A DNA stretch of 42,630 nt. Origin: Bacteroidota bacterium (GTDB lineage Bacteria; Bacteroidota; Bacteroidia; Chitinophagales; UBA2359). The notes under the pieces are model-generated. The model was given only the letters and a program-made list of their open reading frames with translations, did no database searches and was not told the origin of the DNA. Positions 24,106 through 39,323 of this stretch are shown one piece after another. The position numbers and the translations under genes are program-made. The first letter of the stretch is position 1. Each line of letters begins with the position of its first letter. The stretch spans positions 1-42,630 of the forward strand of contig JAHDFT010000003.1 in NCBI GenBank assembly GCA_020628015.1, written 5' to 3'.

Positions 24106-24130
24106 TAAAAATTATACTAAAACCACAACA

Positions 24131-24170
24131 AGAAAGCCCACAATAGATTTAAATCTGTTGTGGGCTTTCT
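24131..24170. terminator. Bidirectional terminator hairpin between the convergent ridA and RT genes
   Basis: Perfect 13-bp inverted repeat agaaagcccacaa (24131-24143) / ttgtgggctttct (24158-24170). It is followed by tatttct on the plus strand and preceded by A-rich sequence. Confidence 0.7.
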
Positions 24171-24196
24171 TATTTCTAATCGTTGTTCTGCTTGCA

Positions 24197-25576
24197 TCAA
24201 GCCTGTTTTAACCAAGGATGCTTCGTCAATAACTGCTGTGCTTTATCTGCATTAATCATATTCAAATAAGACCAATATCCTTTCCCATAAGCCTTCGCAT
24301 TTTTACCCATTCTTCTCGACATTTCAAACTCACCATAACGATCATAATGATGCAAAAAACTACGGAAACGCTTTAAATCTCGACGAGACAAATTCGGTTT
24401 TTCATTAATCACCACACCAGTCAAACTCTGACGGTGATGTGGTCGCAATACCACCAATTTATCAGGATGTAGGATAAAATTTTCCTTATAAATAATAGTT
24501 TTCGCACATTTGATTAATCGACTAACTGCTTGATCTTTATTAGAATGAGAAAAGGCAAGATCATCCGCATAACGAGTATAATTAAAACCTAATTTATCTG
24601 CTAATCCTTTCATGCGTTTATCTAGGCGATAACAAATAATATTGGAAATAGCTGGTGAAGTGCAGGCTCCTTGGGGTAAATAACGCTCCCCTAGTGCGAC
24701 ATAAAAGTTTTTATCTCCTAACTGGGCATTGATTCGAGCTGCGTCTGTGCAAATCAAAGCAAAAATACTGGCTATGCCTTCATTATAGCCCAACATCTGA
24801 AACAATCCTTTGACTCGCTTAAATTTGACCGAAGGGAAAAAGTCTTGCAAATCCATTTTTACTAAAACACCTGCCCCTTGATGCGCTTTAGCGTTATCTG
24901 CTACAGAGCAATTGGGACGGAATGCTTTTGCAGAGTCGGTAACAGGAATTTTTTCTAGTATATTTTTTAGCAACCAAGATTGGGCTTTACGTAATAAAGG
25001 TTTGGGTGCAGCGATGGTACGAAATCCGCCTTTTCGCTTAGGAATTTGAAAACGGCTATAGTGGTCTGTTTGCGCTGTAACTCGATGATAAGACAGCCAT
25101 GATACTTGTTTTGTAGTTATACCAACTGCTTCAGCAAATTCGGTAGCATTGTGAATGGGGGGTAAATCCCATTTTTTCAACTTTTCAAGATTAGCTCCTT
25201 CAAACTTCAAACCAGCCGAAACCTGATCTCCTAGATAAGGCGGCGTTTCTGATCGACGTTTTTCCTCCTTTGCTTGTCGTTCTTTTTTCTCTGCTGCTTT
25301 TCGGATTTTCCGTTCTGCTCGTTCCTTTTTGACCCGCTCAATTCGCTTTCGACGAATCTCCTTGAGCATTGCCTCAATATTTCCTAAAGCATGAATTTGT
25401 CGATCTTTATTCCGAATCTTATTGTCTAGGCGAATAACTTCCTTGGTTCCCTCCAATAGTTTATCAGCATCTTCTGGAGCCATCTCCAAAAAACCAAGTT
25501 GAATCATATCTTGTAGCTCAAAATATTTGCGCCCATATTTGTTAATTATTTTGCGCCATTCTTTGACCTCATTCAT
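24197..25576 (-). CDS. Retron-type reverse transcriptase with a ~150-aa charged coiled-coil N-terminal extension
   Basis: RT motifs: FRTIAAPKPLLRKAQSWLL (motif 1), DLQDFFPSV (motif 3/A), LPQGACTSPAISN (motif 4/B), YTRYADDLAFS (YADD, motif 5/C). Retron-diagnostic motifs are also present: NAKAH (NAxxH) and RQSLTGVVIN (the VTG-type motif after the thumb). Confidence 0.9.
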   Translation of the reverse strand: MNEVKEWRKIINKYGRKYFELQDMIQLGFLEMAPEDADKLLEGTKEVIRLDNKIRNKDRQIHALGNIEAMLKEIRRKRIERVKKERAERKIRKAAEKKERQAKEEKRRSETPPYLGDQVSAGLKFEGANLEKLKKWDLPPIHNATEFAEAVGITTKQVSWLSYHRVTAQTDHYSRFQIPKRKGGFRTIAAPKPLLRKAQSWLLKNILEKIPVTDSAKAFRPNCSVADNAKAHQGAGVLVKMDLQDFFPSVKFKRVKGLFQMLGYNEGIASIFALICTDAARINAQLGDKNFYVALGERYLPQGACTSPAISNIICYRLDKRMKGLADKLGFNYTRYADDLAFSHSNKDQAVSRLIKCAKTIIYKENFILHPDKLVVLRPHHRQSLTGVVINEKPNLSRRDLKRFRSFLHHYDRYGEFEMSRRMGKNAKAYGKGYWSYLNMINADKAQQLLTKHPWLKQA

Positions 25577-25646
25577 TTTTCCTTGTTTTTAGTAACAATT
25601 AAATCAATCAACTTAAAAAATAAATAATCTCTAAACACGCTTATCA

Positions 25647-27281
25647 TCAACTTCCTATATGTAATACGCCAGCTACAATATGACTACAAGGCCCTTGACG
25701 TAATTTATTGCTTCGGAAAAAACCACAAGTACATTCCGCTTTAATCACTTTCCCATCTGCATCTAGGGAAATAACAGGTTTAAATACTTTCTTTCCTGTT
25801 ACAGATAGGGTATATTTAGTCAATTCTTTATCTTGCTCTTTTCCTAGTAAATTGACTTTTCCTTCTTTAAATAATTTAGTTGCATATTTAATGCGTTCAT
25901 CTGATTCAGAAGACTTGATTTTGATTTTCTGCTCTAGTAATTTTCGCCAGCGATATTGGCCAGTAATAGGGTCAAACATTGCCTGTCCATGCTTACATAA
26001 TTCTTGTAAAGCTTTAGTAGCGACTTTTTGCTCTAAGTCCAACCATTCTGCAAAGTCTGCTGGTTTACCAGTCAATTTTTTGATTAACGCTTGTTCTACC
26101 TTTTTTACAGTAGCTTTATCAACTTTTCCTATAGCTCCTAGCAAATCAAAACTGGCTTTTTTTGCCCAATCATTAGCCGTCCAGCCTGATAAACCCAAGT
26201 CAAAACGATGGCCATCAATGGAAACTGACCAATAAGAAGGCATTCCTGTTCCTAAAAGTTTGATATGTACTTTTTGGGCATAAGGCAATACTTCTCGCCA
26301 AACCATCAAGCGACGACGACCCCAAATTTTTATGGAACCTTCTTTTTCTCCATTGTATACATAATCATTTTCTTCAACTACGATATTCCAAGGGGCAATA
26401 GTAATACTTGGCTTTTTCCCTTTCTCCAATTTGAATTCCAAATAACGTGGACTCACTCTCTCTTTTTGTCGCTCCAAAACGCCTAGCACTTCTGCCAAAG
26501 TATCTGCACTCAATGTTACCAAAGTACCAGCCATACTTGCTGCCGATTGAACTTGTAGAAAACCATTGACCCAACTATCTGGTAAATCAATTTTCTTTTC
26601 TACTCGTGAACCAGCCGTTGTTGAGACTTCTACTTGCTCGAAGGCTACTTTTAGCCAAGCAGGGCGATAGCTGCGAACTCGGTAAATCTCATCTGCCAAA
26701 GCTGCACTAAAGTCAATATTCGTTGTCCCATATTTTACATCATCAAAAATATCCAGATTTTCTGTAGGCACACTCACCCGTCCATAAACCGACTCATCCA
26801 AAGAAAATGCTTCAAAAATCACACTATCTGGATGCACACTAATCACAGGATCAAACAGCCATCGACGAGCATCTCGTGTTTGCCAAATCCAATTTCGGTA
26901 AGCTCGTTTCGCTTTATTGAAATCTTTTCTTAGTGGAGCCAATTCTGCATTGAGTTCTTTTTTGCGATCAATCCAAGCTTGCTTTTCCTTAGTTAATTTG
27001 GCTTGTTTTTCTAGTACAACTTGCTTTTCCTCGGATAATTCCTTCAAATATTGTGTTTTCACCCATTCTTGATAAGCTGTATGATCTTTCTGTGGCGGTC
27101 GCCAATCACCAATCACCACTTGTCTCAATACCAGCATCAATTTGGCGTAAGCTAGGCTATTTCGCACCATAGCATGTAGCGATACAGGCGGTCGTGAAAG
27201 CTCCGCCGAAAGGGAAAAATGCATTCCCTTATCATCTGCTTTAGCCGTACTTGGCTGATGGTAAGCTTGTGTTAATTGCAT
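25647..27281 (-). CDS. Winged-helix / SWIM zinc-finger protein (retron accessory gene)
   Basis: C-terminal SWIM signature CTCGFFRSNKLRQGPCSH (CxCx(n)CxH). It is preceded by a helical wHTH-like segment (VEQALIKKLTGKPADFAEWL...). There is a coiled-coil segment near the N-terminus. It sits 70 nt upstream of the RT on the same strand. Confidence 0.75.
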   Translation of the reverse strand: MQLTQAYHQPSTAKADDKGMHFSLSAELSRPPVSLHAMVRNSLAYAKLMLVLRQVVIGDWRPPQKDHTAYQEWVKTQYLKELSEEKQVVLEKQAKLTKEKQAWIDRKKELNAELAPLRKDFNKAKRAYRNWIWQTRDARRWLFDPVISVHPDSVIFEAFSLDESVYGRVSVPTENLDIFDDVKYGTTNIDFSAALADEIYRVRSYRPAWLKVAFEQVEVSTTAGSRVEKKIDLPDSWVNGFLQVQSAASMAGTLVTLSADTLAEVLGVLERQKERVSPRYLEFKLEKGKKPSITIAPWNIVVEENDYVYNGEKEGSIKIWGRRRLMVWREVLPYAQKVHIKLLGTGMPSYWSVSIDGHRFDLGLSGWTANDWAKKASFDLLGAIGKVDKATVKKVEQALIKKLTGKPADFAEWLDLEQKVATKALQELCKHGQAMFDPITGQYRWRKLLEQKIKIKSSESDERIKYATKLFKEGKVNLLGKEQDKELTKYTLSVTGKKVFKPVISLDADGKVIKAECTCGFFRSNKLRQGPCSHIVAGVLHIGS

Positions 27282-27344
27282 GATTTTTATTTTAATATAT
27301 TTGGAATAGCTTGTGTAGGAATGACAGATAGTAAAGCATCGGTA

Positions 27345-30182
27345 TTATTTCAATACAAAGTCTCCTAATTGTTCTTCCCCAGCAATTGCCATTTTGGTGA
27401 GTTGTAAAATTGCCCATTCTGCATCCTTCTTATTCTTCCCTTTAGCCATTCTCAGCAAGGCTTTAGGATCAACAGCTAGGGTATTTTCCAAGCGTTCTTT
27501 CACCAATTCCTTCGTTTTTCGTCCTTTATTTTTAGTTCGCAAAACGGCTTCATCAAATCGCTTCATTCGTTTTTGAGCATCTGGATAACGCACCAATAAT
27601 TCCGCAACATATTTTTGAATAAAAGGATCTGTTTGCTCCGATAAATAGCTGATGAGCTGCTCTGGATTTAAATTCGCTTCTTGTTCTTTGGTCAATTGTA
27701 AACCAGCTTCTCGAACCGCACGACGAGGGCTATCACACATCGCCAAAACACGCTCCATCATTTGTCCTTCATATTCTAAGGGTCGCTTAAAAAATGAATG
27801 ACCAAGTTTAAAGGCATCTGGGACATCAGTTTCCATTAATCGAAGTGCGAAAGGCAGGTCAAAATCCTGTTGCTTGGCTCGTTCGATACTCCATTTTCGA
27901 ATGCTATTTAATGCATGAGCGCAACCCTGTAATAAGGCTTCTGATTCAGGTGCAAAAAGGGCTTCATTGGCTTCGACCCACTCAAATAAGCGTTTTTCTA
28001 ATGGGCTGTGGGTAATGTCTAAAATCGCTATATCACTAGTATTATTAAGTGTTTCATTAGCGGCTGGATAGTTTAAGGTACGCTTATATAGTGTATCTTT
28101 TTCTTCCACCATCAATTGATTCAAAATCTTCACCCAACAATTTGCCCCATTTGCTCCTTTCAAATAATCAACAAAAGGTTTTTCTAGCATCCCCCATTGT
28201 CGATTGTGTGTAGTAGAGACCATTTTTACTACTGTATCTACATTTAAATTATGGAACAACTTATCAAAAACAGGTGCTAGTTTATAAATATAATCTGGAC
28301 GTGAATTCACTAATCGTTGTAGGGTATCAAAGTAAATATTTTGGTAATGCTTGTCAAAATGCTCCATCACTACCTGATGAAAGCGGTTGATTTTTTTAGC
28401 ATAAAACTGATTGACAACAGCTCGCACTATTTGACGGAAAGAATTCTCTTTTAATCGACCATTCAATAGAAATTCTAAGGTATTTTTATGTACCCATTCA
28501 TCTTCATCTACTAAACATTGAGCTACCTGATAAGCAACAAAATTCGTCTGCTTATTATTTCTTTGTTTAATCTCTTCAATAATTGCATCCCGATCTTCTA
28601 GGTTTTTCAATCGAGGCAGCCAGCGGTAAAAATTGCGCTGGGCTACGTTGATCAAGGCTTTCTTGGCTGGTTCATAAAATAAAGGATGTCCATGTTTCAT
28701 TAAATCGAAGGGACGGCCATAATTAATTGCCCAAGTAATGAAATTACTATGATACTTAATCAATACTTTGGCTCCATATTCTGATTGGATTGTATTTTTA
28801 TAAGGCTTATAAGCCATACTGCGCCAGTATAATCTATTGGCAAGATTCCGAATGGTATTTTTGGGGTCATTTTGTAAAGACAATAAATACCAACCAAAAT
28901 CCACGATTGAAGGAGAATCATTAATGACAAAACGCTCAACATCTCTAAGTCTGAGTTTTTGGATTGGATATTTACTCGCTAAAGCAGGATAAAATACTTT
29001 TTTCTGTTCTGCGGAAGCATGATCTAAAGCTCCCAACCAACTTTTGACATCTTTTTGTTTGCTCTTTTCAATATTACTTTTTACTAAATTCGTTAATCGC
29101 CAATCATTTTGGGCTAAAATACCCACCAAATTTTGCTTAATCAACATAGAAGGAATCATACTGGCTTTTCCTAAAACTAAATTCAAACCTACACCTACTC
29201 GATTTTTCGGCTTTTTATTATCTAATTGAGGGAAAATGAGTGTACTCAGATAGGTGACGAACATGGACATATCAAAATTGCGAAGGTTCACTTGATTTTT
29301 ACTTGGTTGTTCTTCTCCTGTAAAAAATGAGGTAATTCGTCCTAGAAAAGAATTTGGAGCTTCTCCTTGTTTTTGAGGAGTGGAAATCGCCTTTTGAATG
29401 ACTTTTTTAGTGTTCGCAGGAGCGTAATAATAGGTTTTTGCCCAAGTTTCCATGTTTTTTTCTTCTCCTTTTTGAAGCAAGTTCCAAGATGCTTTTGCAG
29501 CAAAGCTTTGTAACCAAGGGCTATTACTATTGAAAAAAGGCAATAAAAGATGTGGAGCTACAGTAGGTACAGCTTTTCGATTACGCATTAATACTTTGGC
29601 AATAAACTCATAAATTTCTGGTGCTAAAACCTTACCATGCCAGAGTTTCAACAAATCATCTACATGGCGATCCCAAATATCACTTGCTTTGTCCTCTTTT
29701 CGATAAATATTGGGTATTTCTTTATTAGCAGCATATATCCCTCGCCCATTTCGACGCTGTTTAACTCGTTTAGAATTTCCTTGAATAATGTTCAGTAAAA
29801 CCCATTGATGAGCATGATCTACTGCTTGTTTTTGTAACTGAAATAAGGCTAGACAAATTTCAACATATATGGCTTCATTTTCTTTGGATAATTTTCGCAA
29901 ATAACGGGCAGCTCGTCGCTTCATATAAGCCAATGTTGCAGCTGTAGGATATAGATTTTTACGATCTTCAACTAAAGGAGCCTGATCAATACGAGCAATA
30001 ATGATGGCTAATGCTCTAGGCATAGGTTCACTTTGCCCTTCAAGTTTTTTGTATAATTGTTTTATAAGTTTCCAATGCCCTTTAACGAATGGAGCTTCCT
30101 GAAGATAGGTATTAAGTTTCTGCTGTTCTGTCTTATCTTTTGGTGGGAAATGATCTATGAGGGAGGTATTTATTGGTAGCAT
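27345..30182 (-). CDS. Large all-alpha ARM/HEAT-like repeat protein (retron accessory gene)
   Basis: About 945 aa, helix-rich, with no catalytic motif seen. It is the first ORF after the structured ncRNA. I place the start at ATG 30182 (MLPINTSL...) because the TTG-initiated extension to 30251 overlaps the a2 arm and msd flank of the ncRNA. Confidence 0.65.
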   Translation of the reverse strand: MLPINTSLIDHFPPKDKTEQQKLNTYLQEAPFVKGHWKLIKQLYKKLEGQSEPMPRALAIIIARIDQAPLVEDRKNLYPTAATLAYMKRRAARYLRKLSKENEAIYVEICLALFQLQKQAVDHAHQWVLLNIIQGNSKRVKQRRNGRGIYAANKEIPNIYRKEDKASDIWDRHVDDLLKLWHGKVLAPEIYEFIAKVLMRNRKAVPTVAPHLLLPFFNSNSPWLQSFAAKASWNLLQKGEEKNMETWAKTYYYAPANTKKVIQKAISTPQKQGEAPNSFLGRITSFFTGEEQPSKNQVNLRNFDMSMFVTYLSTLIFPQLDNKKPKNRVGVGLNLVLGKASMIPSMLIKQNLVGILAQNDWRLTNLVKSNIEKSKQKDVKSWLGALDHASAEQKKVFYPALASKYPIQKLRLRDVERFVINDSPSIVDFGWYLLSLQNDPKNTIRNLANRLYWRSMAYKPYKNTIQSEYGAKVLIKYHSNFITWAINYGRPFDLMKHGHPLFYEPAKKALINVAQRNFYRWLPRLKNLEDRDAIIEEIKQRNNKQTNFVAYQVAQCLVDEDEWVHKNTLEFLLNGRLKENSFRQIVRAVVNQFYAKKINRFHQVVMEHFDKHYQNIYFDTLQRLVNSRPDYIYKLAPVFDKLFHNLNVDTVVKMVSTTHNRQWGMLEKPFVDYLKGANGANCWVKILNQLMVEEKDTLYKRTLNYPAANETLNNTSDIAILDITHSPLEKRLFEWVEANEALFAPESEALLQGCAHALNSIRKWSIERAKQQDFDLPFALRLMETDVPDAFKLGHSFFKRPLEYEGQMMERVLAMCDSPRRAVREAGLQLTKEQEANLNPEQLISYLSEQTDPFIQKYVAELLVRYPDAQKRMKRFDEAVLRTKNKGRKTKELVKERLENTLAVDPKALLRMAKGKNKKDAEWAILQLTKMAIAGEEQLGDFVLK

Positions 30183-30204
30183 GGGAGAAGCATATATAAA
30201 TGTG

Positions 30205-30455
30205 AAAAAAAAATAGAGCTTTGCTACTAACAAGCTTAGGACCAGGGCCAATCACTGTAAGCGGCGGTGCCCCCTATGGATACCTTTAAATCCGAATTGT
30301 GAGCAACGCTAACCCAGCGCACTACGGATTTAAAGGTATCCATAGGGGGCTGAAGCCGCTGAATGACATTGGTGTCTGGTGAAGTAATGGTGGCTTGACA
30401 ACGACCACGGCGAAACACCGCAGTATAATTGCTAACAAAGCTCTTTATTTTTAAT
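30205..30455 (-). ncRNA. Candidate retron msr-msd non-coding RNA
   Basis: Read on the minus strand. a1 is GAGCUUUGUUA (plus 30433-30443) and pairs over 11 bp, with one G-U, to a2 UAGCAAAGCUC (plus 30216-30226). a1 is immediately followed by G in a UUAGC context (complement of 30432), as at the branching G of Ec86. Short GC-rich stems follow (30381-30420). Next is a perfect 26-bp hairpin (30269-30294 / 30325-30350, 30-nt loop), extended by gcggc/gccgc (30261-30265 / 30355-30359). A U9 run follows a2. The region is conspicuously GC-rich in an AT-rich genome and lies upstream of a retron-type RT operon. Confidence 0.75.
30261..30359 (-). repeat. Long inverted repeat (predicted msd stem-loop)
   Basis: gccccctatggatacctttaaatccg (30269-30294) is the exact reverse complement of cggatttaaaggtatccatagggggc (30325-30350). 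An outer 5-bp extension is separated by a small internal loop. Confidence 0.9.
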
Positions 30456-30520
30456 ACAAAAAATATTGAAATAGAAGTAACTAGTATCACAGGGTAAGTT
30501 AGGATCTCGTTGGACTCACT

Positions 30521-30600
30521 TTGATTACTATCGCACTTCTGATATTATAAAGGTAAAAAAAGTCTAAATAGTTTCCAAAAAATCCCTTTTTTTTAGCAAA
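30521..30600. repeat. Intergenic ~80-bp direct repeat, copy 1
   Basis: ttgattactatcgcacttctgatattataaaggtaaaaaaagtctaaatagtttccaaaaaatcccttttttttagcaaa. About 85% identical to 30697-30775. Confidence 0.85.
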
Positions 30601-30696
30601 CTTTATTTTTGTTTAGGACTTTGATAAGTAATTCTAAATAGAAATAAAATCGTTTTTCTCCTGACTTAATCCTTACAAAGCTGATATTTATTAGCT

Positions 30697-30775
30697 TTGA
30701 TTACCGTCGCACTTCTGATATTATAAGGAAAATTAGGTCGAATTAGTTTCCAGAAATCCTTTTTTTTTAGCAAAA
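30697..30775. repeat. Intergenic ~80-bp direct repeat, copy 2
   Basis: ttgattaccgtcgcacttctgatattataaggaaaattaggtcgaattagtttccagaaatcctttttttttagcaaa. Same orientation as copy 1, 176 bp away. Confidence 0.85.
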
Positions 30776-30814
30776 ATCAAGAAAAAATTAGCTAAAAAAG
30801 ACTAAAAATATCAC

Positions 30815-31378
30815 TTAGGATATTTTTTTTAGTAATTCATCATCTGGATACCCCAACATCCTTATATTTCCGTCTGCTTCTACATGAATTTCGACATAAT
30901 TGGCATTCTCCATATCCGCTGCCTTATATCGTTCGGTTAAAAATAATACTTGTTGATTTTCTGAACCTCGCCATTGCAAATTGGTGTTTCGCAAGGCTTC
31001 TACATAGCGACCAGCGATTAGAATATCACAATAATCTAATACGTCTGTTTGTTTTCGCTCTTTTAATTCTGTCAACTCATAACCTGTGTACATCATAATC
31101 GTCAAACCTCGTGCCTTAATTTGTTGACAAAGGGCTAAAGTTTCTTCATATTGATCAAAGGGTTCTCCTCCTAATATGGTAACGCCTTCTATTTCACTTT
31201 CCCAAGCCATAATATCATGCATCAATCGCTCAACGGTCATGATCTGATTCTCCTTGAAGCTCCATGTTTCCTTATTCCAACAGCCTTTACACTTAATAGA
31301 ACAGCCTTGAGTCCAGATCACAAATCGAGTGCCTGGTCCATAAATATGGCTGGTTGGTTCTATGTGGTAAGTATTCAT
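30815..31378 (-). CDS. NrdG-like radical-SAM glycyl-radical-enzyme activase (orphan)
   Basis: GPGTRFVIWTQGCSIKCKGCWNKETW (CX3CX2C in the NrdG/PflA context), ILGGEPF, YTGYELTEL, DILIAGRYV...LQWRGSENQ. These are collinear with E. coli NrdG as I remember it. ATG at 31378 preferred over the TTG at 31426. Confidence 0.8.
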   Translation of the reverse strand: MNTYHIEPTSHIYGPGTRFVIWTQGCSIKCKGCWNKETWSFKENQIMTVERLMHDIMAWESEIEGVTILGGEPFDQYEETLALCQQIKARGLTIMMYTGYELTELKERKQTDVLDYCDILIAGRYVEALRNTNLQWRGSENQQVLFLTERYKAADMENANYVEIHVEADGNIRMLGYPDDELLKKIS

Positions 31379-31472
31379 TATATATAAAATATTAAAATAG
31401 GAATAAAAGCGACTTTTGGTGAGCAAAATGGAACTTTACTCAATGGTGAATCAGTAGGCATTCTCTCATTCA

Positions 31473-31961
31473 TTATCCTTTTACAAGAACTAATTGCGTT
31501 CTACCATTTTTGGTTTTCCTTTGTATTTTGTATCCCATTGCTCTAGCTCTTTCCTCAATTGCCTCTTGTTGCTTTTTCAAGTAGGCTTGCCGTTGTGTTT
31601 GCAAGCGAATGGCTTCTCTCATGGTTGCTTCCTTGATCTTAATTTCTTCTGGATCAGTAGGCTCTCCACCACCTTCATCTTCTTCAGCGGCTGCCAACTT
31701 TCGGTCAACGATGCCGTTATAGGCTTCTTCGAGATATTTTAAGAATGTACGAGCTTTGGCTTTGACCTCCGTATCATAGTGAAATTGAAATCGCCCCAAT
31801 TCGTCCTTGACAAAACAAGCTTTGTGGTGAAATCGCAATTGTGGAATTTCGTAACGGACTCCTTCCTCAATAGGTACTAGATCGTATCCGCATTGTTTTA
31901 CTGCTTCTAGCAAGGTATTTAAGTCCAAAAATGGCGTTAAAGATTTGACAACTACACTCAT
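31473..31961 (-). CDS. DUF1257 (Ycf35-like) family protein with a charged insert
   Basis: N-terminus MSVVVKSLTPFLDLNTLLEAVKQCGYDL and C-terminus MGYKIQRKTKNGRTQLVLVK match the DUF1257 pattern (M..f..i.t...d...L..AL..lGy... / kGY.v.r....dG.i.L.l). It is adjacent to a DUF2997 gene, as is typical. Start moved to ATG 31961. Confidence 0.6.
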   Translation of the reverse strand: MSVVVKSLTPFLDLNTLLEAVKQCGYDLVPIEEGVRYEIPQLRFHHKACFVKDELGRFQFHYDTEVKAKARTFLKYLEEAYNGIVDRKLAAAEEDEGGGEPTDPEEIKIKEATMREAIRLQTQRQAYLKKQQEAIEERARAMGYKIQRKTKNGRTQLVLVKG

Positions 31962-32054
31962 TTTTGTGTGGTTTTGAATGTTAAAAAAGTATCGCATTAG
32001 TCCTAAAATAGATATTTCATGATTTATTTTAAGACTAATACTAAAATAATGGTA

Positions 32055-32264
32055 TTATTTTTTTGCTTTTACTTGCTCTTTGGTAACAGATTTTCTTCCC
32101 TGATAAAAATCATCCGTCTTTTTTACGGAGGCATTTCCCAAATCTGCAATATCCTTCATGAGATTATTGAGTTCATCCATGCACATTTCACCTGTCATAC
32201 CTTCAGTCTTCGCAAGGATTTTCCCATTTTCATCTATATCAATGATGATTTTTTCTTCTTTCAT
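32055..32264 (-). CDS. DUF2997 family small protein
   Basis: 69 aa. IIIDIDENGKILAKTEGMTGEMCMDELNNLMKDIADLG...KTDDFYQ fits the DUF2997 pattern (I.i..dG.v...v.G..G..C.....l...lG.v....t.eyy). Confidence 0.6.
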   Translation of the reverse strand: MKEEKIIIDIDENGKILAKTEGMTGEMCMDELNNLMKDIADLGNASVKKTDDFYQGRKSVTKEQVKAKK

Positions 32265-32347
32265 AATATAGGAGTACTTTAATTTAAAAAAATGATTATG
32301 ACACCAAATTCCCTAGTGAGTTTGGTATAAATCTGAAACTGCTAAAA

Positions 32348-34732
32348 TTAAGCTGTCACAGGTTCTTCTTTAGTGGCACAAAGTATCGCTCCTAGTTTTT
32401 GAGCGTCTTCTTTTGCCCAGTCGTATTCTGACCAACTATTGATGGCTAGATAACGTTTGTTTCCCCAAGTGAATAGATGTCCTCTACGAGGAAGTGATTC
32501 ATTGGGGTAGTCAGCAGAAAAAAGTGGTAAATCAACAATATTGACAACTATTGTTGGTTCCTCATGTTCTGCTGAATTGTCTTTTTGTTTGAGTGCTGTA
32601 TTGGAAGCATAGCGATTTTTGAGAATCGAAGAAAGTGAAGATTTCTTTCTGCCTCCTGATTTCGTACTAACCGTTTGTAATTTAGATTGTTGACTTCTAA
32701 TTCGATTGGTTTGGGAAGTGAATGACTTCCCCATTTCTTTTTCAATGAAAGCCAATCGTTTAGAAATATTTCGCAACTGGTCAGAGAAAACATTGATTTC
32801 TTGGCTATTGCCTTGTAAATATTCCTCATAAGGTGCATCAATATCCTTCATTTCCTTCACCAACAAATCTACACCTCCTGCATCTCGTCCATCTCTACTT
32901 TGCCGCTCTGCTACTCTTTGTAGAGCAACCATTAGATCTTCCCAACCACCTTCTTTCCATTCTTGTTGCTCCATAAATTCTTTCCGCATTCGATTTCGCT
33001 CACTTTCGAGATAACTCCCCTTTGCGTCCATGTCCATATTATCATACATGTTCCCCCACTGACGAGTCAAATTTTGTTTACGTTGCTCTAGCTTTGATAC
33101 CTCTTTCTTGTATTTTTGTTGATTTTCTTCAAACTCTATTTTTGCTTCCTTCACTTTTATATCACTTAACACACTAAAATTCTCCTCATTGAACACGTTA
33201 ATGGCTCGATCTAACTGTTGAATACAACGGTTCACTTCTGCGGTTTGTAATACCGCAATATCCTTTTTCTTCAACTCCTTAATCGTGCTATCTACTTCGA
33301 TAAGTCGCTTTTTGGCTTTTGTCCAACCGCCTAGAATTTTAGATTTTAGGGTATCAGGAATTTCTTCTACTGCCTTGTATAATTCATCTCTTTTTTGTGC
33401 CAATTCATCAACAGTTTTGGAGAATCGACTTTGTGCAGCAATCCATTTTTTGTAGAGTGGTGCGTCTGTTGCCCCTTGTGGTAATTGTTGTGGTTCTAAC
33501 TTGATTTCATATTTCACTTCCAAAGCATACAAGTCCTCTTCTGGCATAAATTCATCCCATACTGGATTTTTCAAAGCACCTAATTCTACTTTTTTAATCG
33601 CAGGCTCTGCCTCAGCTTCTTGGCTAATCTCAATAGATTTGGACAAATCATCTACTAGTAACAAAGGAGCTTCGACAGCTTGAAATTGCTTCTTTGCATG
33701 AAAATGATACTTAGATTTATTTGTCAAATCATTAGCATAAGCTAATAAATCCTTGCATTGACCTTCGTTTAATTTCAATAAATAGACTAGATTTTCCTGT
33801 TTATAAGCATCCATATCCAAAATGGGGAGCCAATATATTTCATTATTATCAAGAATAACAAAATTCGCCAATGTGCTTTCAATAGCCTCCAAATGATTCC
33901 CTTTTTCTGCTAATTGCTTGACCAAATCATTGGAACGCTGTTGCAGCGTACATAAAATCCTTGCTTCTTTGAGTTTGTCTACAGGTATTTTTAAGGGATT
34001 CGTTTGATTATTATCCATACGATGTAAAATCATTTTCACATCTGTAGCTCCTGCTAATTTTCTAGCTAAAAAGCCATTAATACCATCCCAACCAAAATAA
34101 GGTGTAGGTAATCCAATCTTATTGAAAGGTGATCCCTCTACTTGTTTGGGCATTTCCAAATGACTTTCTTGAAGAATCTCAAAACCTGCTTTTTCCCAAA
34201 AAGTTTGACAGAAAAAGGCAAACAAATTAGTCAATTGCGATGCAGAGAGTGCGGTCAACAAGCCTTTTTGCTTCACGACTGCATTATCTAAGAGATGGTG
34301 GTTATAGATAAAGCCAGACTGTTTTTCCTTTTTGGGATCAATCAATACAAAAGTACCAACAACTGAAGCACCACATCGGATCAAAGCTTGACCAGCTAGT
34401 GCCTTAAGATCATTGAGGGAAACGACATCTTGATCGTCAGGGCGTTGGTCTATTAATAAGTAAAGGCGTACATTTCGCTCGTTTATCGCTCTTAAACAGG
34501 CTTCCTCAATTGCTGTTCCTGCTTGAAAAAAGGGGGTTTGAAGACAAATGACTTCCTCTGCTTGGTCAATCGCATAGGCAATCGTTGCTTCAATATCTGT
34601 TAAAGCAAAGTGCGTCCATTCTTTGAATTCTGGCTGCGGTTTGACCGTCTGTTTTTCCCAAAAATGGGTTAGCAACTTCTGCCGATTATCTTGAACGAAT
34701 GTTTTACTTATTGGTACAATAGATGATGACAT
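32348..34732 (-). CDS. Hypothetical 794-aa protein: N-terminal PLD-like (apparently inactivated) module plus a long coiled-coil and a C-terminal domain
   Basis: Residues ~45-160 (AIDQAEEVICLQTPFF...NVRLYLLIDQRP...VGTFVLIDPKK...SGFIYN) and ~265-300 (ARILC...LANFVILDNNEIYW) resemble the two halves of a PLD/Nuc fold. However, H and K of HxKxxxxD are replaced (V.T / L.N). The central ~250 aa are K/E/Q-rich coiled-coil. Confidence 0.4.
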   Translation of the reverse strand: MSSSIVPISKTFVQDNRQKLLTHFWEKQTVKPQPEFKEWTHFALTDIEATIAYAIDQAEEVICLQTPFFQAGTAIEEACLRAINERNVRLYLLIDQRPDDQDVVSLNDLKALAGQALIRCGASVVGTFVLIDPKKEKQSGFIYNHHLLDNAVVKQKGLLTALSASQLTNLFAFFCQTFWEKAGFEILQESHLEMPKQVEGSPFNKIGLPTPYFGWDGINGFLARKLAGATDVKMILHRMDNNQTNPLKIPVDKLKEARILCTLQQRSNDLVKQLAEKGNHLEAIESTLANFVILDNNEIYWLPILDMDAYKQENLVYLLKLNEGQCKDLLAYANDLTNKSKYHFHAKKQFQAVEAPLLLVDDLSKSIEISQEAEAEPAIKKVELGALKNPVWDEFMPEEDLYALEVKYEIKLEPQQLPQGATDAPLYKKWIAAQSRFSKTVDELAQKRDELYKAVEEIPDTLKSKILGGWTKAKKRLIEVDSTIKELKKKDIAVLQTAEVNRCIQQLDRAINVFNEENFSVLSDIKVKEAKIEFEENQQKYKKEVSKLEQRKQNLTRQWGNMYDNMDMDAKGSYLESERNRMRKEFMEQQEWKEGGWEDLMVALQRVAERQSRDGRDAGGVDLLVKEMKDIDAPYEEYLQGNSQEINVFSDQLRNISKRLAFIEKEMGKSFTSQTNRIRSQQSKLQTVSTKSGGRKKSSLSSILKNRYASNTALKQKDNSAEHEEPTIVVNIVDLPLFSADYPNESLPRRGHLFTWGNKRYLAINSWSEYDWAKEDAQKLGAILCATKEEPVTA

Positions 34733-34788
34733 TGTTTTGTCTTTTCTTTAAAAAAGTAATAATGGTAAAATAACTTAATACATAGCAT

Positions 34789-35880
34789 TTATACCGCCAA
34801 ATCATAAGGTGCCGCTAGGTGCCAAAATGCTTCTGATTTGAGGCTATCTTCGTCCGCTTTGGTTCTTTCCAAAATATCTTCTACAGTCAAAGTATCTAGT
34901 TCATGATGTTTGAAGGCAGCATTTTGGTTAATTTGTAGCACCATTTGATCTAAACGCTTAGGACGGATGTAGTTTTTTTGTACTTCCTCCATCACTAACC
35001 AATCTCGCCATTGGTTAGCATCTGTCTCATTAGCAGGCACAACGGCAATGTCTTTCAAAGTCACCTCATCAAATCTACCATAAGGAGACTCTGGTACATT
35101 AAGCGTCAGATGTGGAATAAGGAAGCGTTTTTTAGTTGTTGGGGGTAATTCCTCACTAAATCCAACCGCTATACATCCTGCGGCTTCATGCCACTCTAAA
35201 TTACCTGCGCCTGCAACTGCCTGAAGCACTTCTACTTGTGATTGGCTTAATTTTGTTTCATGATGTAAATCAATCGGCATTCTTGTACTACTCAAACGGA
35301 GTTCTCCATCTAACACGCAAATTGACTCATCGGTTGTAGAGGAATACCAAGTCCATTCTAAATTTGCAGAATCATTTCCTCTGAAGTAGCCCTCCTCATT
35401 GACTCCTAGCCCTAAAACTTGAATATCAACTGTTTGTCCCCCACTTTTTAGCGAATAGGTTTGATTGATAAAATTTTGTAAGGGCAATTGATGCAGGGAG
35501 CCACCTGTTTCTTTAGCTTCTTCTTCGGCAACTTCTGGTTTTACTCGCTCAAAATGTACAAAATGTTCACCAATCAACGGATCATTCGAGATGACCCATA
35601 TTTTGTATAAGCCTTCTTCTTTTTGCCAGAATCTTCCGCTTTCTAGTACCCCTTTTCCTGTTTCGGTAATGCTCCACCCTTCTCCATCTACTGCTAACAA
35701 GTCCATGCTGAATAGATAGCGAGCAATTTGGCGAGATAATGGATCATTTTGAGTATCTATTTCGCCTTTATCTAATGCTTCTAAAAATTCCTGGATATCA
35801 GTACGCTCCGTAGCTACTTTTAAGCTGCCATATACCTGATAAACTGGTATTTCTACTGTTCGCTTTAGTGTTAATGCCAT
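34789..35880 (-). CDS. Hypothetical 363-aa protein (possible N-terminal winged-helix)
   Basis: Long ORF, codirectional, with 38-56 nt gaps to its neighbours. The first ~90 aa have a wHTH-like pattern. No catalytic motif recognised. Confidence 0.5.
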   Translation of the reverse strand: MALTLKRTVEIPVYQVYGSLKVATERTDIQEFLEALDKGEIDTQNDPLSRQIARYLFSMDLLAVDGEGWSITETGKGVLESGRFWQKEEGLYKIWVISNDPLIGEHFVHFERVKPEVAEEEAKETGGSLHQLPLQNFINQTYSLKSGGQTVDIQVLGLGVNEEGYFRGNDSANLEWTWYSSTTDESICVLDGELRLSSTRMPIDLHHETKLSQSQVEVLQAVAGAGNLEWHEAAGCIAVGFSEELPPTTKKRFLIPHLTLNVPESPYGRFDEVTLKDIAVVPANETDANQWRDWLVMEEVQKNYIRPKRLDQMVLQINQNAAFKHHELDTLTVEDILERTKADEDSLKSEAFWHLAAPYDLAV

Positions 35881-35918
35881 TGATTGAATCCTTATTTATT
35901 ATTTAGTAATGGACTATA

Positions 35919-38900
35919 TTAATGTTGTAAATATTCGACCAATTCCCGCCATTCCTCAGAAATCGTTTGTGTGCCGAAGGTATCTTGTTTTCCAACAATC
36001 ACTAGTTGATATTTAGCACGAGATAAAGCCAAATTCAAGCGATTAGGGCTATCTGGAAAGGCGGTTTGTGGATTGCCTAAACAGAGGAAAACAACATCTG
36101 CCTCTTGTCCTTGAAAAGTTTCGACCGTTCCTACGTGAATATCGACATTTCCTTTTTGGTAAAGCAGCTTCGTTGTCTTGTCTTCACAAAGGTCTTGCAC
36201 CATTAAACACAGTTTTCGTTTTTGATTGGGTTGGAAACATAGACAGGCTACTTTATAATTCCCTTCTTGTTGATTTGCCCAATCGCAGAAATGTTGTAAT
36301 TCCTCCTTCAAAACAGGAATTTCTTGTTCTGTCGTATTGAGCCAAGTTACTCTGGATGCATGCCGATCAAAGTCCCAATCTCGCTCATTACTTAGTGCAG
36401 GTACATCTTTCAAGGTATTTTCATAGAAGACTTTGCTTACCAATTGGGTAATATCTGGATGCATTCGATGTTGTACTTCTAGTCTGCTATGTCTTAACCC
36501 TTCAAGGATTTCATCAGCAAATCCTTTGGTTAATGTGCTGGTATATTTACTGCGTAATCGACCAATTACCCCATTGTGAATGCTTTCTAATAGGGATGGT
36601 AATGCCATACGACTAATGTGTATCACTTTACCAGCAATATTTAAGGACTGTGGGAATAATCGGTGTAATCGTCTCTTTAGTTGTCTTGCTCTTTGATTGC
36701 GATCTGCTCTACTTGTAAATTGTAGTTCAAATTGCCTAATAATCGCTTGACTCAATATTCTTGACCAATTTTCTCGATGGAGAATGGTTTCGATATACTG
36801 AGCAATTTTTAGTGATTCATTGATAATTGTTCCATCTGTACTTACAATTCCTGTTGCAAAATCTGGACTTGCTTGTCGCATAAAGGCAAGGTGACGGAAT
36901 CCATGTTTATAGTATTGCCAGTTTTTTCCTAAAAAGATAAAATATTCTGGTAAAAGATCAAGTACTTCATGTGTCAAAGACTCATCTAACAAAATGAAAT
37001 CAGCAATATGAGCTGCTAATCTATTTTCTTGTAAAGCTTCTGGGGAAAAGATTTGCATCCATCCTTTTGCTTTTAACTTTTCTCTTGAAATGGTTATCCA
37101 TTTTTTGCCTACTAGTTCAAATTCATTATAATCGTCGTCACTTTCTTCCATTCTTACCCCTATTTCCTTGACCATTGCATCTAAAACTTCGGCAGGTAAT
37201 GGTAGAATAAAGCGATTGTGAAAGTCTTGCTTTACTCCTTCTTGACCAGCAATGCTTGTGTTGCTATATTTCAACAAAGTTTCTAGGTAAAAACAGGCTT
37301 TTTGAAGGGCATCAGGAATCCCTTTCATCTTAGAGAAACGCAAATTACCAATTAATCGCTCTACAGAATGCCTATTGGTATAAGGAGTTAATTGCATGGT
37401 GTCTCCTGCGAGTATCCATTTTTTAGCAAAAACGGCTGGAAGGAGGAAGTCTTGGAAGGTAATGTCGTTGCTTTCATCAACGATTAGGTAGTCAAAGTAA
37501 GGACTTAATGGCTGATGGGTATCAGTTGTCAACCACTGACGCATCATTGGATGTTCCCACATTTCTTTAACAGGTGCGACTACCAAATTCGCTGCCTCCA
37601 AAATTAACTGCTCTGGTCGGCTTGTTTCTTCATCAGTATAGGCTTCCCAATGAAAAACACGCAAATCATTATCAACTCGATCTAACTCCCCTACTCGAAG
37701 TGGGAAAGTTTCTTTTTGAAAATCAGGATGTTGTATAATTTGTCGTAGTAAATGATCGGCTCCTTGTGGTGTTGCACTACATAATAGGATTCGTGGATAT
37801 TGTTTGGATGCTTTGGCTTTTTGTAGAATTTGCCAGATTAACTCTAGTAAAACGGTCGTTTTTCCAGATCCAGGCGCACCTTCCAAAAAGGCAAAGTCAG
37901 GAGTTGCCAATGCTCTTTTGACAAAATCTCTTTGTGCCTTACAACCTTTTCGTTTCCCATTTTTTAGTAATAACCACTTACCAGTCTGTATGTCTGCCTC
38001 CTCAAATGCTTCCCATTGAACCTCCTGAATGGGTTCAAAGATTTTCATTAATGGATAAAGGTGAGCGTGAGGTTGTGCTAGTAATCGAGCCATGACCTCT
38101 AATTGATGCTCTGGTGGACGGCTATCTGCATGAATAAAAATCAATTCGGTTGCGGGTAGGATATATTTTGGTGCAACGACTTCATCTAGAAACATAAAAG
38201 ACTTTTCAGCCAATACAATTCTTCTTTCTGCTTCATTTCGCAATACAATATTGTAGACTTTCCCATATTCATCCATGACAGAATCAATCGTCTCATCAAA
38301 GAAGTAGGCAAAGTCATCATCTGATTTGTAGGATTCATTAACCAAATCTAATTCAATCCAGAATTGATCTTTGGCTTCCTGTTCATGATCTTCTACTTTA
38401 TGCAACCGCAATTCCATTCCATTGACGGTATGGAAAAGGGCATCTTCTCGATAGCTATCTTTGTAGATGGCAAAGGTTAAAGAATTGGGATCAATCACCT
38501 CCTCATAATCAAAATTGAGGATATTTTCTAGGCGAATATCCATAGCCAATTCCTCGATAGTTGCTAGATGTTCTGGCAGTTTGGGTATGGTATGGCTACA
38601 AACAACTGCTTCTGTCAAATCGAAATTGACAATTTGTAGATCGGGATATTGATAGAGGTCAATTTGTTCAATAATCCGGAAGCCTGTATCTTCTCCGTTA
38701 ATAAGCAATTGGGTGGAGGGCTGAATAAATGCATCTAGGAATAATTGTTTATCCTTAAATTCAAAGTCTAGTTGCTCTCCATAGGTAGTTACTGTATTGA
38801 CCTCCCCTGTTTCTACCCATGCCAATTCCAATTCAAAAGCTTCGAATCCCCAATGAACACGCCCTAGAAAAGCTTCGGTTAATGGCAAACGAATGAAGAT

Positions 38901-39275
38901 GCCTTCCTCATTCATTTGGAAATCATCTGAAGTAATCTCAAACTGTTTTTTGAGCTTTCTTACTCGAATTGGCTCAAAATAGTCTGTTTCAAAGATTTCT
39001 TCTTCATCTCTTACCTTGTACCAACCTTTTCCAGCAAACACTTGCACACAGGTATGCGGCTTGATGCGAAACCACTTCATTTGTGGCATCAATTGCACGA
39101 TCTCCAAATCAATATGTTTCCAGTGGGCAGCTACTTTTTTGCTTCGCAAGGATTCAATCGCTGCTTCTAGGTAATATTGAAAGGGATGTAAAGCATCTTT
39201 GACATACTCCTGCAATTGAAGTGCTTGATCGGCATCTCCTTCTGGGATTAGTTGTTTATAATAAAGCAGTGACAT
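35919..39275 (-). CDS. Superfamily-1 (Upf1/Dna2/COG1112-like) helicase with a ~440-aa unknown N-terminal region
   Basis: Walker A LEGAPGSGKTT, Walker B DYLIVDESNDI, motif III LAGDTMQL, motif V/VI VGTVETFQGQEADVVFL and LNLALSRAKYQLVIVG. Confidence 0.85.
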   Translation of the reverse strand: MSLLYYKQLIPEGDADQALQLQEYVKDALHPFQYYLEAAIESLRSKKVAAHWKHIDLEIVQLMPQMKWFRIKPHTCVQVFAGKGWYKVRDEEEIFETDYFEPIRVRKLKKQFEITSDDFQMNEEGIFIRLPLTEAFLGRVHWGFEAFELELAWVETGEVNTVTTYGEQLDFEFKDKQLFLDAFIQPSTQLLINGEDTGFRIIEQIDLYQYPDLQIVNFDLTEAVVCSHTIPKLPEHLATIEELAMDIRLENILNFDYEEVIDPNSLTFAIYKDSYREDALFHTVNGMELRLHKVEDHEQEAKDQFWIELDLVNESYKSDDDFAYFFDETIDSVMDEYGKVYNIVLRNEAERRIVLAEKSFMFLDEVVAPKYILPATELIFIHADSRPPEHQLEVMARLLAQPHAHLYPLMKIFEPIQEVQWEAFEEADIQTGKWLLLKNGKRKGCKAQRDFVKRALATPDFAFLEGAPGSGKTTVLLELIWQILQKAKASKQYPRILLCSATPQGADHLLRQIIQHPDFQKETFPLRVGELDRVDNDLRVFHWEAYTDEETSRPEQLILEAANLVVAPVKEMWEHPMMRQWLTTDTHQPLSPYFDYLIVDESNDITFQDFLLPAVFAKKWILAGDTMQLTPYTNRHSVERLIGNLRFSKMKGIPDALQKACFYLETLLKYSNTSIAGQEGVKQDFHNRFILPLPAEVLDAMVKEIGVRMEESDDDYNEFELVGKKWITISREKLKAKGWMQIFSPEALQENRLAAHIADFILLDESLTHEVLDLLPEYFIFLGKNWQYYKHGFRHLAFMRQASPDFATGIVSTDGTIINESLKIAQYIETILHRENWSRILSQAIIRQFELQFTSRADRNQRARQLKRRLHRLFPQSLNIAGKVIHISRMALPSLLESIHNGVIGRLRSKYTSTLTKGFADEILEGLRHSRLEVQHRMHPDITQLVSKVFYENTLKDVPALSNERDWDFDRHASRVTWLNTTEQEIPVLKEELQHFCDWANQQEGNYKVACLCFQPNQKRKLCLMVQDLCEDKTTKLLYQKGNVDIHVGTVETFQGQEADVVFLCLGNPQTAFPDSPNRLNLALSRAKYQLVIVGKQDTFGTQTISEEWRELVEYLQH

Positions 39276-39323
39276 TCTTTTTCAATCAAGGATGATAACA
39301 ATAGTATTTAGTCGAAAATAAAA

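Follow-up and report, generated by a model that had tools for sequence, protein, structure and literature searches.

Comparison with described retrons

The first retrons to be discovered, Mx162 and Mx65, belong to type XIII. In the classification of Mestre et al. (2020, PMC7736814), the type consists of retrons with clade-10 reverse transcriptases (RTs), including Mx162, Mx65, Ne144 and Sa163. The primary partner protein of the type is cluster 114, described as having the acidic pattern Dx7[D]x4Ex30-32Dx37E, a DprA-type winged helix and a SWIM zinc finger of the form CxCx12CxH; a HEAT/ARM protein usually, not always, precedes the SWIM gene, and in some systems it has a WGR-like domain (PMC7736814). 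The literature searched yielded no mechanistic, structural or functional study of type XIII. Here we describe a locus within a 42,630-nucleotide stretch of DNA from a Bacteroidota bacterium (contig JAHDFT010000003.1, assembly GCA_020628015.1; the whole stretch is called the window, and all coordinates refer to it). The locus is a complete, intact four-part retron, organised as one minus-strand operon that encodes a noncoding RNA (ncRNA), a HEAT protein, a protein combining a predicted clamp-like core with a winged helix and a SWIM finger, and the RT. It almost certainly belongs to type XIII. The four parts are as follows, in the order of transcription.

30207..30452, minus strand: retron ncRNA gene (msr-msd), 246 nt with the a1/a2 arms counted
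27345..30182, minus strand: HEAT/ARM solenoid protein, 945 aa from ATG
25647..27281, minus strand: SWIM protein, the type XIII primary partner, 544 aa (PADLOC SWIM_XIII)
24197..25576, minus strand: retron reverse transcriptase, 459 aa (PADLOC RT_XIII, Pfam RVT_1)

The locus shares with the type XIII retrons Mxa1/Mx162, Mxa2/Mx65, Nex2/Ne144 and Sau1/Sa163 a clade-10-type RT with an N-terminal extension, a partner with acidic DEDE residues, winged helix and C-terminal CxCx12CxH SWIM finger, a HEAT/ARM gene upstream, and an msr-msd with a long msd hairpin. It differs from the classical members in its host, which is a metagenomic Bacteroidota organism rather than a myxobacterium, and from some members in that its HEAT protein has no WGR-like domain, the family-model match being limited to the N-terminal ~250 aa. 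It also differs in that its ncRNA opens the operon, ahead of the HEAT gene, and in that its DEDE region is predicted to have a clamp fold, which the published description does not contain. With the structurally solved retrons Ec86/Eco1 (II-A), Ec78/Eco7 (I-A), Eco8 (I-B), Eco2 (I-C) and Kva2 (IX), the locus has in common the tripartite logic of RT, msDNA (multicopy single-stranded DNA) and partner, the msDNA hairpin as presumed scaffold, and an RT core similar to that of Ec86 (5e-38). The partners in those retrons are, however, recognisable enzymes (NDT, PtuAB ATPase/HNH, OLD/Toprim, HEPN), whereas here there is no catalogued catalytic domain. The locus is therefore one more member of a known retron type, with a mechanism that we infer below.

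Reverse transcriptase, classification and gene order

The RT matches the PADLOC model RT_XIII with an E-value of 6.7e-151 (501 bits, RT residues 5-458), compared with 299 bits for the next-best RT model, and the PADLOC RT models listed for it are of retron types in 25 cases out of 25. The score points to membership of clade 10. SWIM_XIII matches the whole of the 544-aa protein (9.9e-167), and the large protein is matched by WGR_XIII (1.6e-22) and HEAT-ARM_XIII (2.6e-21), at residues ~23-270 of a 968-aa reading of its gene only. All the published defining features of type XIII (RT, cluster-114 partner and HEAT/ARM gene) are present at the locus. An earlier interpretation of this DNA, made from the letters without database searches (the sequence-only reading), had recognised a retron RT and had named a type XIII with ARM and WH-SWIM accessory genes; both statements agree with the PADLOC models and with the definition of Mestre et al. 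(PMC7736814).

Across the three proteins, Pfam yields RVT_1 (4.1e-22, on the RT) and the SWIM finger alone. NCBIfam gives retron RT matches below cutoff, with group II and DRT (defence-associated RT) matches far weaker, and the nearest solved structure is the retron Ec86 RT (5e-38). The motifs that the sequence-only reading had relied on were all located: NAKAH at residues 228-232 (24881-24895), the catalytic YADD at residues 336-339 (24560-24571), and RQSLTGVVIN, which contains LTG as a VTG-type motif, at residues 382-391 (24404-24433). The N-terminal extension of ~130 aa (residues 1-132, 25180-25576) is conserved across phyla, with the motif GK..F...EM.RLGF[WL]..RIERVR..LG.GVS, in which a charged helix with RIERVR is followed by LG.GVS.GL. 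The sequence QLGFL within this extension was considered as a clamp-binding motif and rejected, the family consensus RLGF[W/L] being neither a PIP box nor the bacterial QL[SD]LF.

The three genes are intact open reading frames (ORFs) with a common orientation in the ORF listing of the window, and are separated by 63 and 70 bp. A TTG start at 30251, which gives the 968-aa reading of the HEAT protein, was rejected: it overlaps the ncRNA, the alignment of homologs is against it, and independent gene calls on identical sequence in other assemblies give 945 aa. We compared the locus with 80 related loci (labelled with L numbers below), counting gene order only in loci with enough flanking sequence. 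The order HEAT, SWIM, RT recurs in Bacteroidota, Armatimonadota and Abditibacteriota: the RT lies downstream of the SWIM gene on the same strand in 53 of 62 informative loci, and a recognisable HEAT-family gene lies upstream of it in 45 of 59, which removes the objection that the accessory genes may lack synteny with the RT. The three-gene set is not a chance association: the family hidden Markov models (HMMs) match with E-values of 1e-151 and 1e-167 and the gene order is kept in dozens of genomes. The nearest relatives are metagenome-assembled genomes of Saprospiraceae, Cytophagales and "Bacteroidetes bacterium", with protein identities of at most 61%.

The ncRNA

The sequence-only reading had delimited a three-gene module, and its gene coordinates hold; the fourth part, the ncRNA at 30207..30452, lies outside the range that it gave. 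The element, read 30452..30207 upstream of the HEAT gene, folds with a z-score of -8.7 relative to shuffles, and its ends form an inverted repeat of 20 nt with 85% complementarity (a1/a2). It has the formal features of a retron ncRNA, namely a1/a2 repeats, a candidate branch G, an msr hairpin and a long msd hairpin:

30433..30452, minus strand: a1 arm of the inverted repeat, with core pairing AGAGCTTTGTTA at 30444-30433
30432, minus strand: candidate branching G, directly after the a1/a2 stem, in a conserved TTAGC
30405..30423, minus strand: conserved msr stem-loop CTGCGGTGTTTCGCCGTGG, 8 pairs, with G-C/A-U/G-U substitutions among 39 copies
30269..30350, minus strand: msd hairpin, 31-nt arms with 94% complementarity and a 20-nt apical region containing conserved CGCTG..GCTCAC
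30207..30226, minus strand: a2 arm, with core TAGCAAAGCTCT at 30226-30215, followed by a T run

The sequence GTTAGCA around the candidate branch G is near-invariant in the alignment of 39 copies, and retron biology suggests, by analogy, that G30432 is the branching G. On the standard retron mechanism, the msDNA start would lie opposite G30227, giving a length of ~125-140 nt.

Of the 80 related loci, 41 contain the element according to an ncRNA profile, and in each of them it precedes the HEAT gene on the operon strand; against this profile, the copy in the window reaches 179 bits. RNAalifold on 39 copies gives 24 consensus pairs, with compensatory changes in 20 of them. The a1 and a2 arms covary: cognate duplexes have a mean energy of -16.7 kcal/mol against -7.1 for non-cognate duplexes, and in 23 of the 39 copies the a1 arm pairs best with its cognate a2, although the arm sequences differ among copies. 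In all 39 copies the msd forms a stem of 25-38 pairs that is close to perfect (mean z -8.0), and the stem sequences are unrelated. Conservation across phyla is seen in the msr core, in the apical loop (CGCTGAG..GCCCAC) and in the flank on the 3' side (CGCCTACAGTGA, GGTCC and TTAGTAGC). The 5' arms of the msd stems are enriched in GGTAC (11/39, with 1.0 expected) and GTAC (19/39, with 4.2 expected), located ~10-17 nt into the arm, where the window copy has GGATACC. This GTAC-type site may be a protein-binding site or a bait for DNA modification.

The ncRNA profile has no match in about half of the related loci, among them the Microscillaceae-type ones, and in Microscillaceae-type loci with SWIM and RT genes it found no ncRNA with the filters off either. 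In L005, a 146-aa ORF occupies the upstream gap and there is no ncRNA match in it. An Rfam scan of the 23-32 kb region found no retron msr family and no family at threshold; sub-threshold matches (mir-10, RUF6-5, leader peptides) are spurious and merely flagged the hairpin.

We note that within window 30199-30226 a run of nine Ts directly follows the a2 arm, ~20 nt before the HEAT start codon, and that Bacteroidota relatives are T-rich at this position too. The T run may cause partial termination, leaving ncRNA in excess over mRNA. Further upstream, between an NrdG-like gene and the ncRNA, a unit of ~80 bp occurs in two direct copies (30519-30599 and 30695-30773), whose 32-nt core TTATAATATCAGAAGTGCGAnnGTAATCAAAG is 94% identical between the copies and is found nowhere else in the window; it may be a duplicated promoter or regulatory unit. 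The region 30456-30814 was considered as a second or degenerate ncRNA and rejected (fold z 0.13, no match to the ncRNA profile).

The SWIM protein

The sequence-only reading had described a 544-aa protein ending in a SWIM finger, which is correct except for the spacing: the finger CTCGFFRSNKLRQGPCSH is CxCx12CxH, with x12 rather than x15. Pfam detects it at 3.2e-4, above the gathering score, and its four zinc ligands are invariant in 32 homologs. The AlphaFold2 model of the protein, built with these homologs, has a mean predicted local distance difference test score (pLDDT) of 78.6 and a predicted template modelling score of 0.72, with residues ~145-370 mostly at 76-95. The predicted layout is an N-terminal beta/alpha region, a long helix (84-135), a two-domain core, a winged helix and the SWIM domain (476-544):

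26172..26849, minus strand: PCNA/beta-clamp-like two-domain core, as predicted by AlphaFold2 and Foldseek, residues ~145-370
25947..26117, minus strand: winged-helix-like region, residues ~389-445, from the helix/strand pattern of the model
25680..25733, minus strand: SWIM zinc ligands C517, C519, C532 and H534

The range of the clamp core was read from the secondary-structure pattern of the model and not from the Foldseek alignment. The winged-helix region gives weak profile matches to the winged helix-turn-helix proteins eS25 and MarR-type AdcR, and it is here that Mestre et al. placed the DprA-type winged helix (PMC7736814).

Most of the protein is neither winged helix nor SWIM finger, and in the AlphaFold2 model it takes a clamp-like fold according to Foldseek. 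Against the PDB, the top 50 matches are 50 sliding clamps (archaeal and eukaryotic PCNA, 9-1-1 and DnaN), with a best E-value of 2.6e-9, probability 1.0, and TM scores on the target of 0.61-0.66 over ~240 columns; against the viral structures in BFVD, the top 50 matches are likewise all sliding clamps, with probability 1.0. The modelled core has two beta-rich domains with four helices in all, a pattern that would correspond to PCNA-type topology, and the published "DEDE" region is thus predicted to be a sliding-clamp fold. The identities in the clamp matches are only 7-16%; sliding clamps of different lineages share very little sequence identity. There is no detectable internal repeat at the sequence level between the two clamp-like halves, and none is expected in a clamp. 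Searches of PDB sequences with both partner proteins and with the SWIM-family profile gave nothing meaningful. The protein resembles sliding clamps (PCNA, 9-1-1, DnaN) in its predicted two-domain beta-alpha fold with four helices. It is unlike them in that the fold forms part of a multidomain protein of 544 aa, along with coiled coil, winged helix and SWIM finger, and in that the core has an invariant acidic cluster, which is absent from clamps; unlike clamp systems, the retron operon contains no clamp-loader gene.

The acidic cluster is Dx7Dx4Ex32Dx37E, the "DEDE motif" of Mestre et al. (2020). In the 32 homologs, which come from several phyla, D144, E157, D190 and E228 never vary, and at least 90% keep D152. 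The core also has conserved basic clusters at R201/R203/R206, K229/K230 and R322-R324. Mestre et al. proposed a DDE/DEDE (IS256/Mutator-like) transposase as the origin of the protein, which would be a metal-dependent nuclease and hence a conventional retron effector. The presence and conservation of the motif speak for this, since polar residues conserved so strongly are typical of an active site, and SWIM fingers occur in Mutator-type transposases (PMC7736814). However, the fold predicted for the DEDE region is that of a sliding clamp and not RNase H-like, neither top-50 list (PDB or BFVD) contains a transposase or nuclease, and no nuclease or transposase family was found with Pfam, NCBIfam or PDB sequence searches. 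We therefore consider the nuclease explanation unlikely. Nuclease chemistry could still reside in a site that the acidic residues form on a clamp scaffold; what the fold weakens is only the transposase ancestry. The sequence-only reading had seen no obvious effector in either partner. This stands in that neither has an enzymatic domain catalogued in Pfam, NCBIfam or PADLOC; what it missed was the published DEDE nuclease prediction, together with the clamp-like fold predicted for most of the protein.

The HEAT protein and the unequal evolution of the partners

The protein described in the sequence-only reading as all-helical and of ~945 aa is confirmed as such: its AlphaFold2 model is an all-alpha solenoid with a mean pLDDT of 89.7, and Foldseek matches it to karyopherins, CAND1, Pds5 and condensin HEAT subunits. 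No catalytic fold was found in the model, by Foldseek or in a domain search of 38 family members, in nine of which HEAT_2 is detected. The protein is conserved over its N-terminal ~260 aa and over its C-terminal ~320 aa, with a variable middle. A word search found only four relatives, with 27-33% identity, while an exhaustive profile search found 762 representatives, whose common part is the C-terminal ~320 aa. Longer members add LVIVD beta-propeller or WG-repeat regions before this constant C-terminal module. The sequence comparison suggests that the HEAT protein consists of a constant docking module and a variable surface.

The two partners evolve very differently: the SWIM protein is under strong constraint, and divergence is fast in the HEAT protein. 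Between Bacteroidota, Armatimonadota and Abditibacteriota, the SWIM protein remains 45-62% identical with ~100 invariant positions, whereas the HEAT protein is 23-34% identical across relatives. The homolog search for the SWIM protein gave 2989 sequences, and 566 stretches were confirmed in 185,579 species genomes.

ncRNA arrays and added domains in related operons

The ncRNA is present in a single copy in the window. Related operons have tandem msr-msd arrays of two to four copies, upstream of the HEAT gene:

L003:3659-4965, L004:3367-4520 and L050:2973-4088: four-copy arrays upstream of the HEAT gene
L057:3514-4322: three-copy array upstream of the HEAT gene
L002, L007, L021, L039, L044, L060, L064 and L078: two-copy loci

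Within a locus, the copies are 66-90% identical in the msr core and only 28-51% in the msd hairpins in 7 of the 8 multi-copy loci compared; the exception is L002, whose two msd copies are 80% identical. We found no paper on natural ncRNA arrays in retrons in the literature searched.

Relatives also acquire domains with a common DNA-end theme, as BRCT fusions to the SWIM protein and as WGR-PARP and WGR genes in the operon. SWIM orthologs from Armatimonadota and Abditibacteriota have a C-terminal BRCT domain (PF00533/PF12738) after the SWIM finger; these are proteins P0074-P0120, from loci L032-L080. In two Bacteroidota loci (L021:9876-12171 and L004:10048-13487), a WGR-PARP protein (PF00644 at 4e-25, plus WGR) is encoded between the SWIM gene and the RT position, next to a second protein of ~320 aa that matches WGR at 1e-5 in L021 and has no Pfam match in L004. 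An Hcp-like gene is also inserted in L004, which has no RT within 8 kb despite its four ncRNA copies.

Some genomes have a full-length, highly conserved SWIM/clamp gene without an RT (L013, L015, L019, L020, L023, L024, L026 and L077). These are Cytophagales and Microscillaceae-type genomes, and six of the loci (L013, L015, L019, L023, L024 and L026) also have no recognisable HEAT gene. L013 has a 1.5-kb upstream gap with a 115-nt direct repeat.

Proposed mechanism

We propose the following mechanism. The RT would be primed by the 2'-OH of the G within the conserved TTAGC, where the a1/a2 stem ends, and would copy the msd region into a branched msDNA of ~125-140 nt. The core of this msDNA would be a DNA hairpin of ~26-31 bp that has a conserved apical loop and conserved sequence on its flanks. 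As is the case in solved retrons belonging to other types, it would act as a scaffold that restrains the partner proteins. The SWIM protein would grip the duplex stem and the junction via its clamp-like core, winged helix and SWIM finger, and the HEAT solenoid would dock by its conserved N- and C-terminal modules, leaving the variable middle as a sensor or adaptor surface. A phage that damages, modifies or sequesters the msDNA, or that binds the HEAT surface, would be the trigger. The DNA-directed SWIM/clamp protein would then be freed onto cellular or phage DNA and would block replication, either by rogue clamp action or by cleavage through the invariant acidic cluster. The scaffold-and-release logic comes from solved retrons of other types (PMC13376987).

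The strength of this proposal differs between its parts. A role of the locus in defence is probable. The specific mechanism of a clamp acting on msDNA is tentative, and we would put our confidence somewhat below an even chance. Slightly more doubtful still is the suggestion that the SWIM partner is a genuine sliding-clamp homolog that would encircle or hold the msDNA hairpin, or else tether the RT to it, which would make type XIII a clamp-based form of nucleic-acid surveillance. As a compromise between these parts, we favour the explanation as a whole, with some reserve.

Several observations weigh against the proposal. Type XIII correlates moderately with host 16S, indicating vertical inheritance and possibly a non-defence role (PMC7736814). 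In the literature searched, neither msDNA synthesis nor phage defence has been reported for any type XIII system. The SWIM gene is found with no RT within at least 3.5 kb in nine Cytophagales-type loci, and some loci have SWIM and RT genes and no HEAT gene. Because the SWIM gene occurs without a nearby RT, the SWIM protein may act independently of the retron, and may be able to work or persist without one adjacent. The clamp assignment has a single predicted model as its sole basis, in which clamp domain 1 has a pLDDT of only 67-91, and a sequence-profile search of the PDB found no similarity of the SWIM family to clamps. No toxic activity was identified for the locus in Pfam, NCBIfam, PADLOC or structure searches.

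Another explanation is that the retron has been domesticated, is inherited mostly vertically and serves DNA metabolism as a housekeeping system, in sensing of damage or DNA ends, repair or replication control, rather than in phage defence. Domestication was suggested from the 16S correlation (PMC7736814), conservation across phyla is unusually strong in the SWIM protein, the msr sequence and the N-terminal extension of the RT, and the domains of the family (PCNA-like, BRCT, WGR and PARP) are those of DNA-break signalling. The HEAT partner, however, evolves very fast and swaps repeat modules, as in an arms race, and the msd stems are hypervariable and multiplied in arrays. The family is present in only 566 stretches among the 185,579 species genomes, and the locus adjoins defence-like genes (an IetA-like AAA+ protein and an MkoA-like helicase). 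Of the ten genes flanking the retron in the window, none is found beside related loci, apart from one RlmN-like match in L035. We therefore give the housekeeping explanation only a small chance of being correct.

A further explanation is that the clamp-like protein serves the RT as a processivity or loading factor, tethering it to the duplex of template or product. The output of the system would be the RT product, as in DRT systems, and no protein toxin would be involved. Tethering a polymerase is the canonical function of the clamp fold, the invariant hydrophobic RLGF[W/L] in the RT N-terminal extension could be a docking peptide, and no toxin domain was found using PADLOC, Pfam, NCBIfam or Foldseek. 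Type XIII also contains some of the longest classical msDNAs, Mx162, Sa163 and Ne144, but the type equally includes Mx65, of 65 nt (PMC7736814). The RT motif fits neither the PIP box nor the bacterial QL[SD]LF consensus, the SWIM gene is kept without an adjacent RT in some genomes, and retron RTs of other types need no clamp. This makes the processivity explanation improbable.

The sequence-only reading had pointed to a possible link with the SWIM/DUF4132 (YehQ/YehI-MolR) pair of MoxR-vWA systems, from which the SWIM and helical-repeat pair would be an offshoot. The E. coli yeh locus combines a WGR protein (YehF), DUF4132 (YehI), MoxR (YehL), vWA (YehP) and SWIM (YehQ). It shares with the present locus the pairing of a SWIM-finger protein with a very large helical protein, and with the wider family the WGR domain, which is present in some type XIII HEAT proteins (PMC7736814; PADLOC WGR_XIII match). 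However, when the SWIM family is compared with YehQ by hhalign, the alignment is confined to the zinc finger (probability 3.9%), and the HEAT family compared with YehI gets a probability of 0.1%, both with single-sequence templates; DUF4132 is found in 0 of 38 family members even at E<=1. The present locus has an RT and an ncRNA, there is no MoxR or vWA gene in the window, and no homology is detected outside the zinc finger. The proposed link is very improbable, and the resemblance is one of architecture at most. Finally, that the RT is of a non-retron class (DRT/UG, Abi, DGR or group II intron) with coincidental neighbours is close to inconceivable: weak matches such as those with group II maturase (4.7e-14) and Drt2/Drt4 are what any RT should give, as against RT_XIII at 6.7e-151, 25/25 retron models among those listed, the NAxxH and VTG-type motifs, the covarying msr-msd in the operon and the conserved synteny.

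Surrounding genes

The window is chromosomal Bacteroidota-like DNA with ~37% GC. A feature near the retron may mark its downstream boundary:

24130..24171, strand unassigned: 19-bp GC-containing hairpin from a scan for terminator-like sites, between the convergent RT and RidA-like genes

This hairpin is probably a bidirectional terminator that forms the 3' end of the operon. Terminator-like sites in total are not above the shuffle expectation, so the case for this one is its position and stem length alone.

Directly upstream of the retron and on the same strand is a separate gene cluster (30815-40973, minus strand). It encodes a CDC48-type AAA+ protein (PADLOC IetA 2.7e-22; classical AAA, PF00004), a superfamily 1 (SF1) helicase of 1118 aa (MkoA 2.6e-48; PLuB helicase-like 8e-21), proteins of 363, 794 and 174 aa without matches, a 69-aa protein with a weak DUF2997 match, and an NrdG-type radical-SAM activase (TIGR02491 2.5e-39, above cutoff) for which no glycyl-radical partner was seen. 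We considered these upstream genes as possible parts of the retron and rejected them: the NrdG-like, DUF2997, 794-aa, 363-aa, SF1 helicase and AAA+ genes are absent from the 80 related loci. Because none of its genes co-occurs with the retron there, the cluster is treated as a separate neighbour, and it may be a second, uncharacterised defence-like system.

Elsewhere in the window there are genes for a giant adhesin with a type IX secretion system (T9SS) tail, asparagine synthase, an ABC transporter and an Nramp transporter. The adhesin-like gene is a 3214-aa ORF at 119-9763 (minus strand) that has a T9SS C-terminal sorting domain and contains repeats of the Ig-like (CHU_C-associated), SdrD-B and Big_9 kinds; it resembles the giant secreted adhesins usual in gliding Bacteroidota.

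Implications

The value of the locus lies in the unsolved mechanism of type XIII together with the leads that it offers: the ncRNA, the clamp-like fold, the fast-evolving HEAT protein, the arrays and the added domains. We found no paper on a clamp fold in retrons in the literature searched. For annotation, the lesson is that the ncRNA of these operons is located upstream of the HEAT gene and not beside the RT. The arrays of ncRNAs with unrelated hairpins, and the addition of BRCT, WGR and PARP domains, suggest a modular system for sensing DNA structure; natural operons with multiple msDNAs may also be of interest for retron-based genome editing.

If the partner is clamp-like, the question moves from a search for a toxin to a concrete structural model, in which a DNA hairpin would carry the clamp, winged helix and SWIM finger, with a fast-evolving HEAT sensor as the cap. 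Were the partner a genuine clamp homolog, type XIII retrons would be built from the parts of eukaryotic DNA-break signalling, with a PCNA-like core and, in relatives, BRCT, WGR and PARP domains, and their hypervariable msd stems, arrayed and enriched in GGTAC/GTAC, would be a panel of DNA baits.

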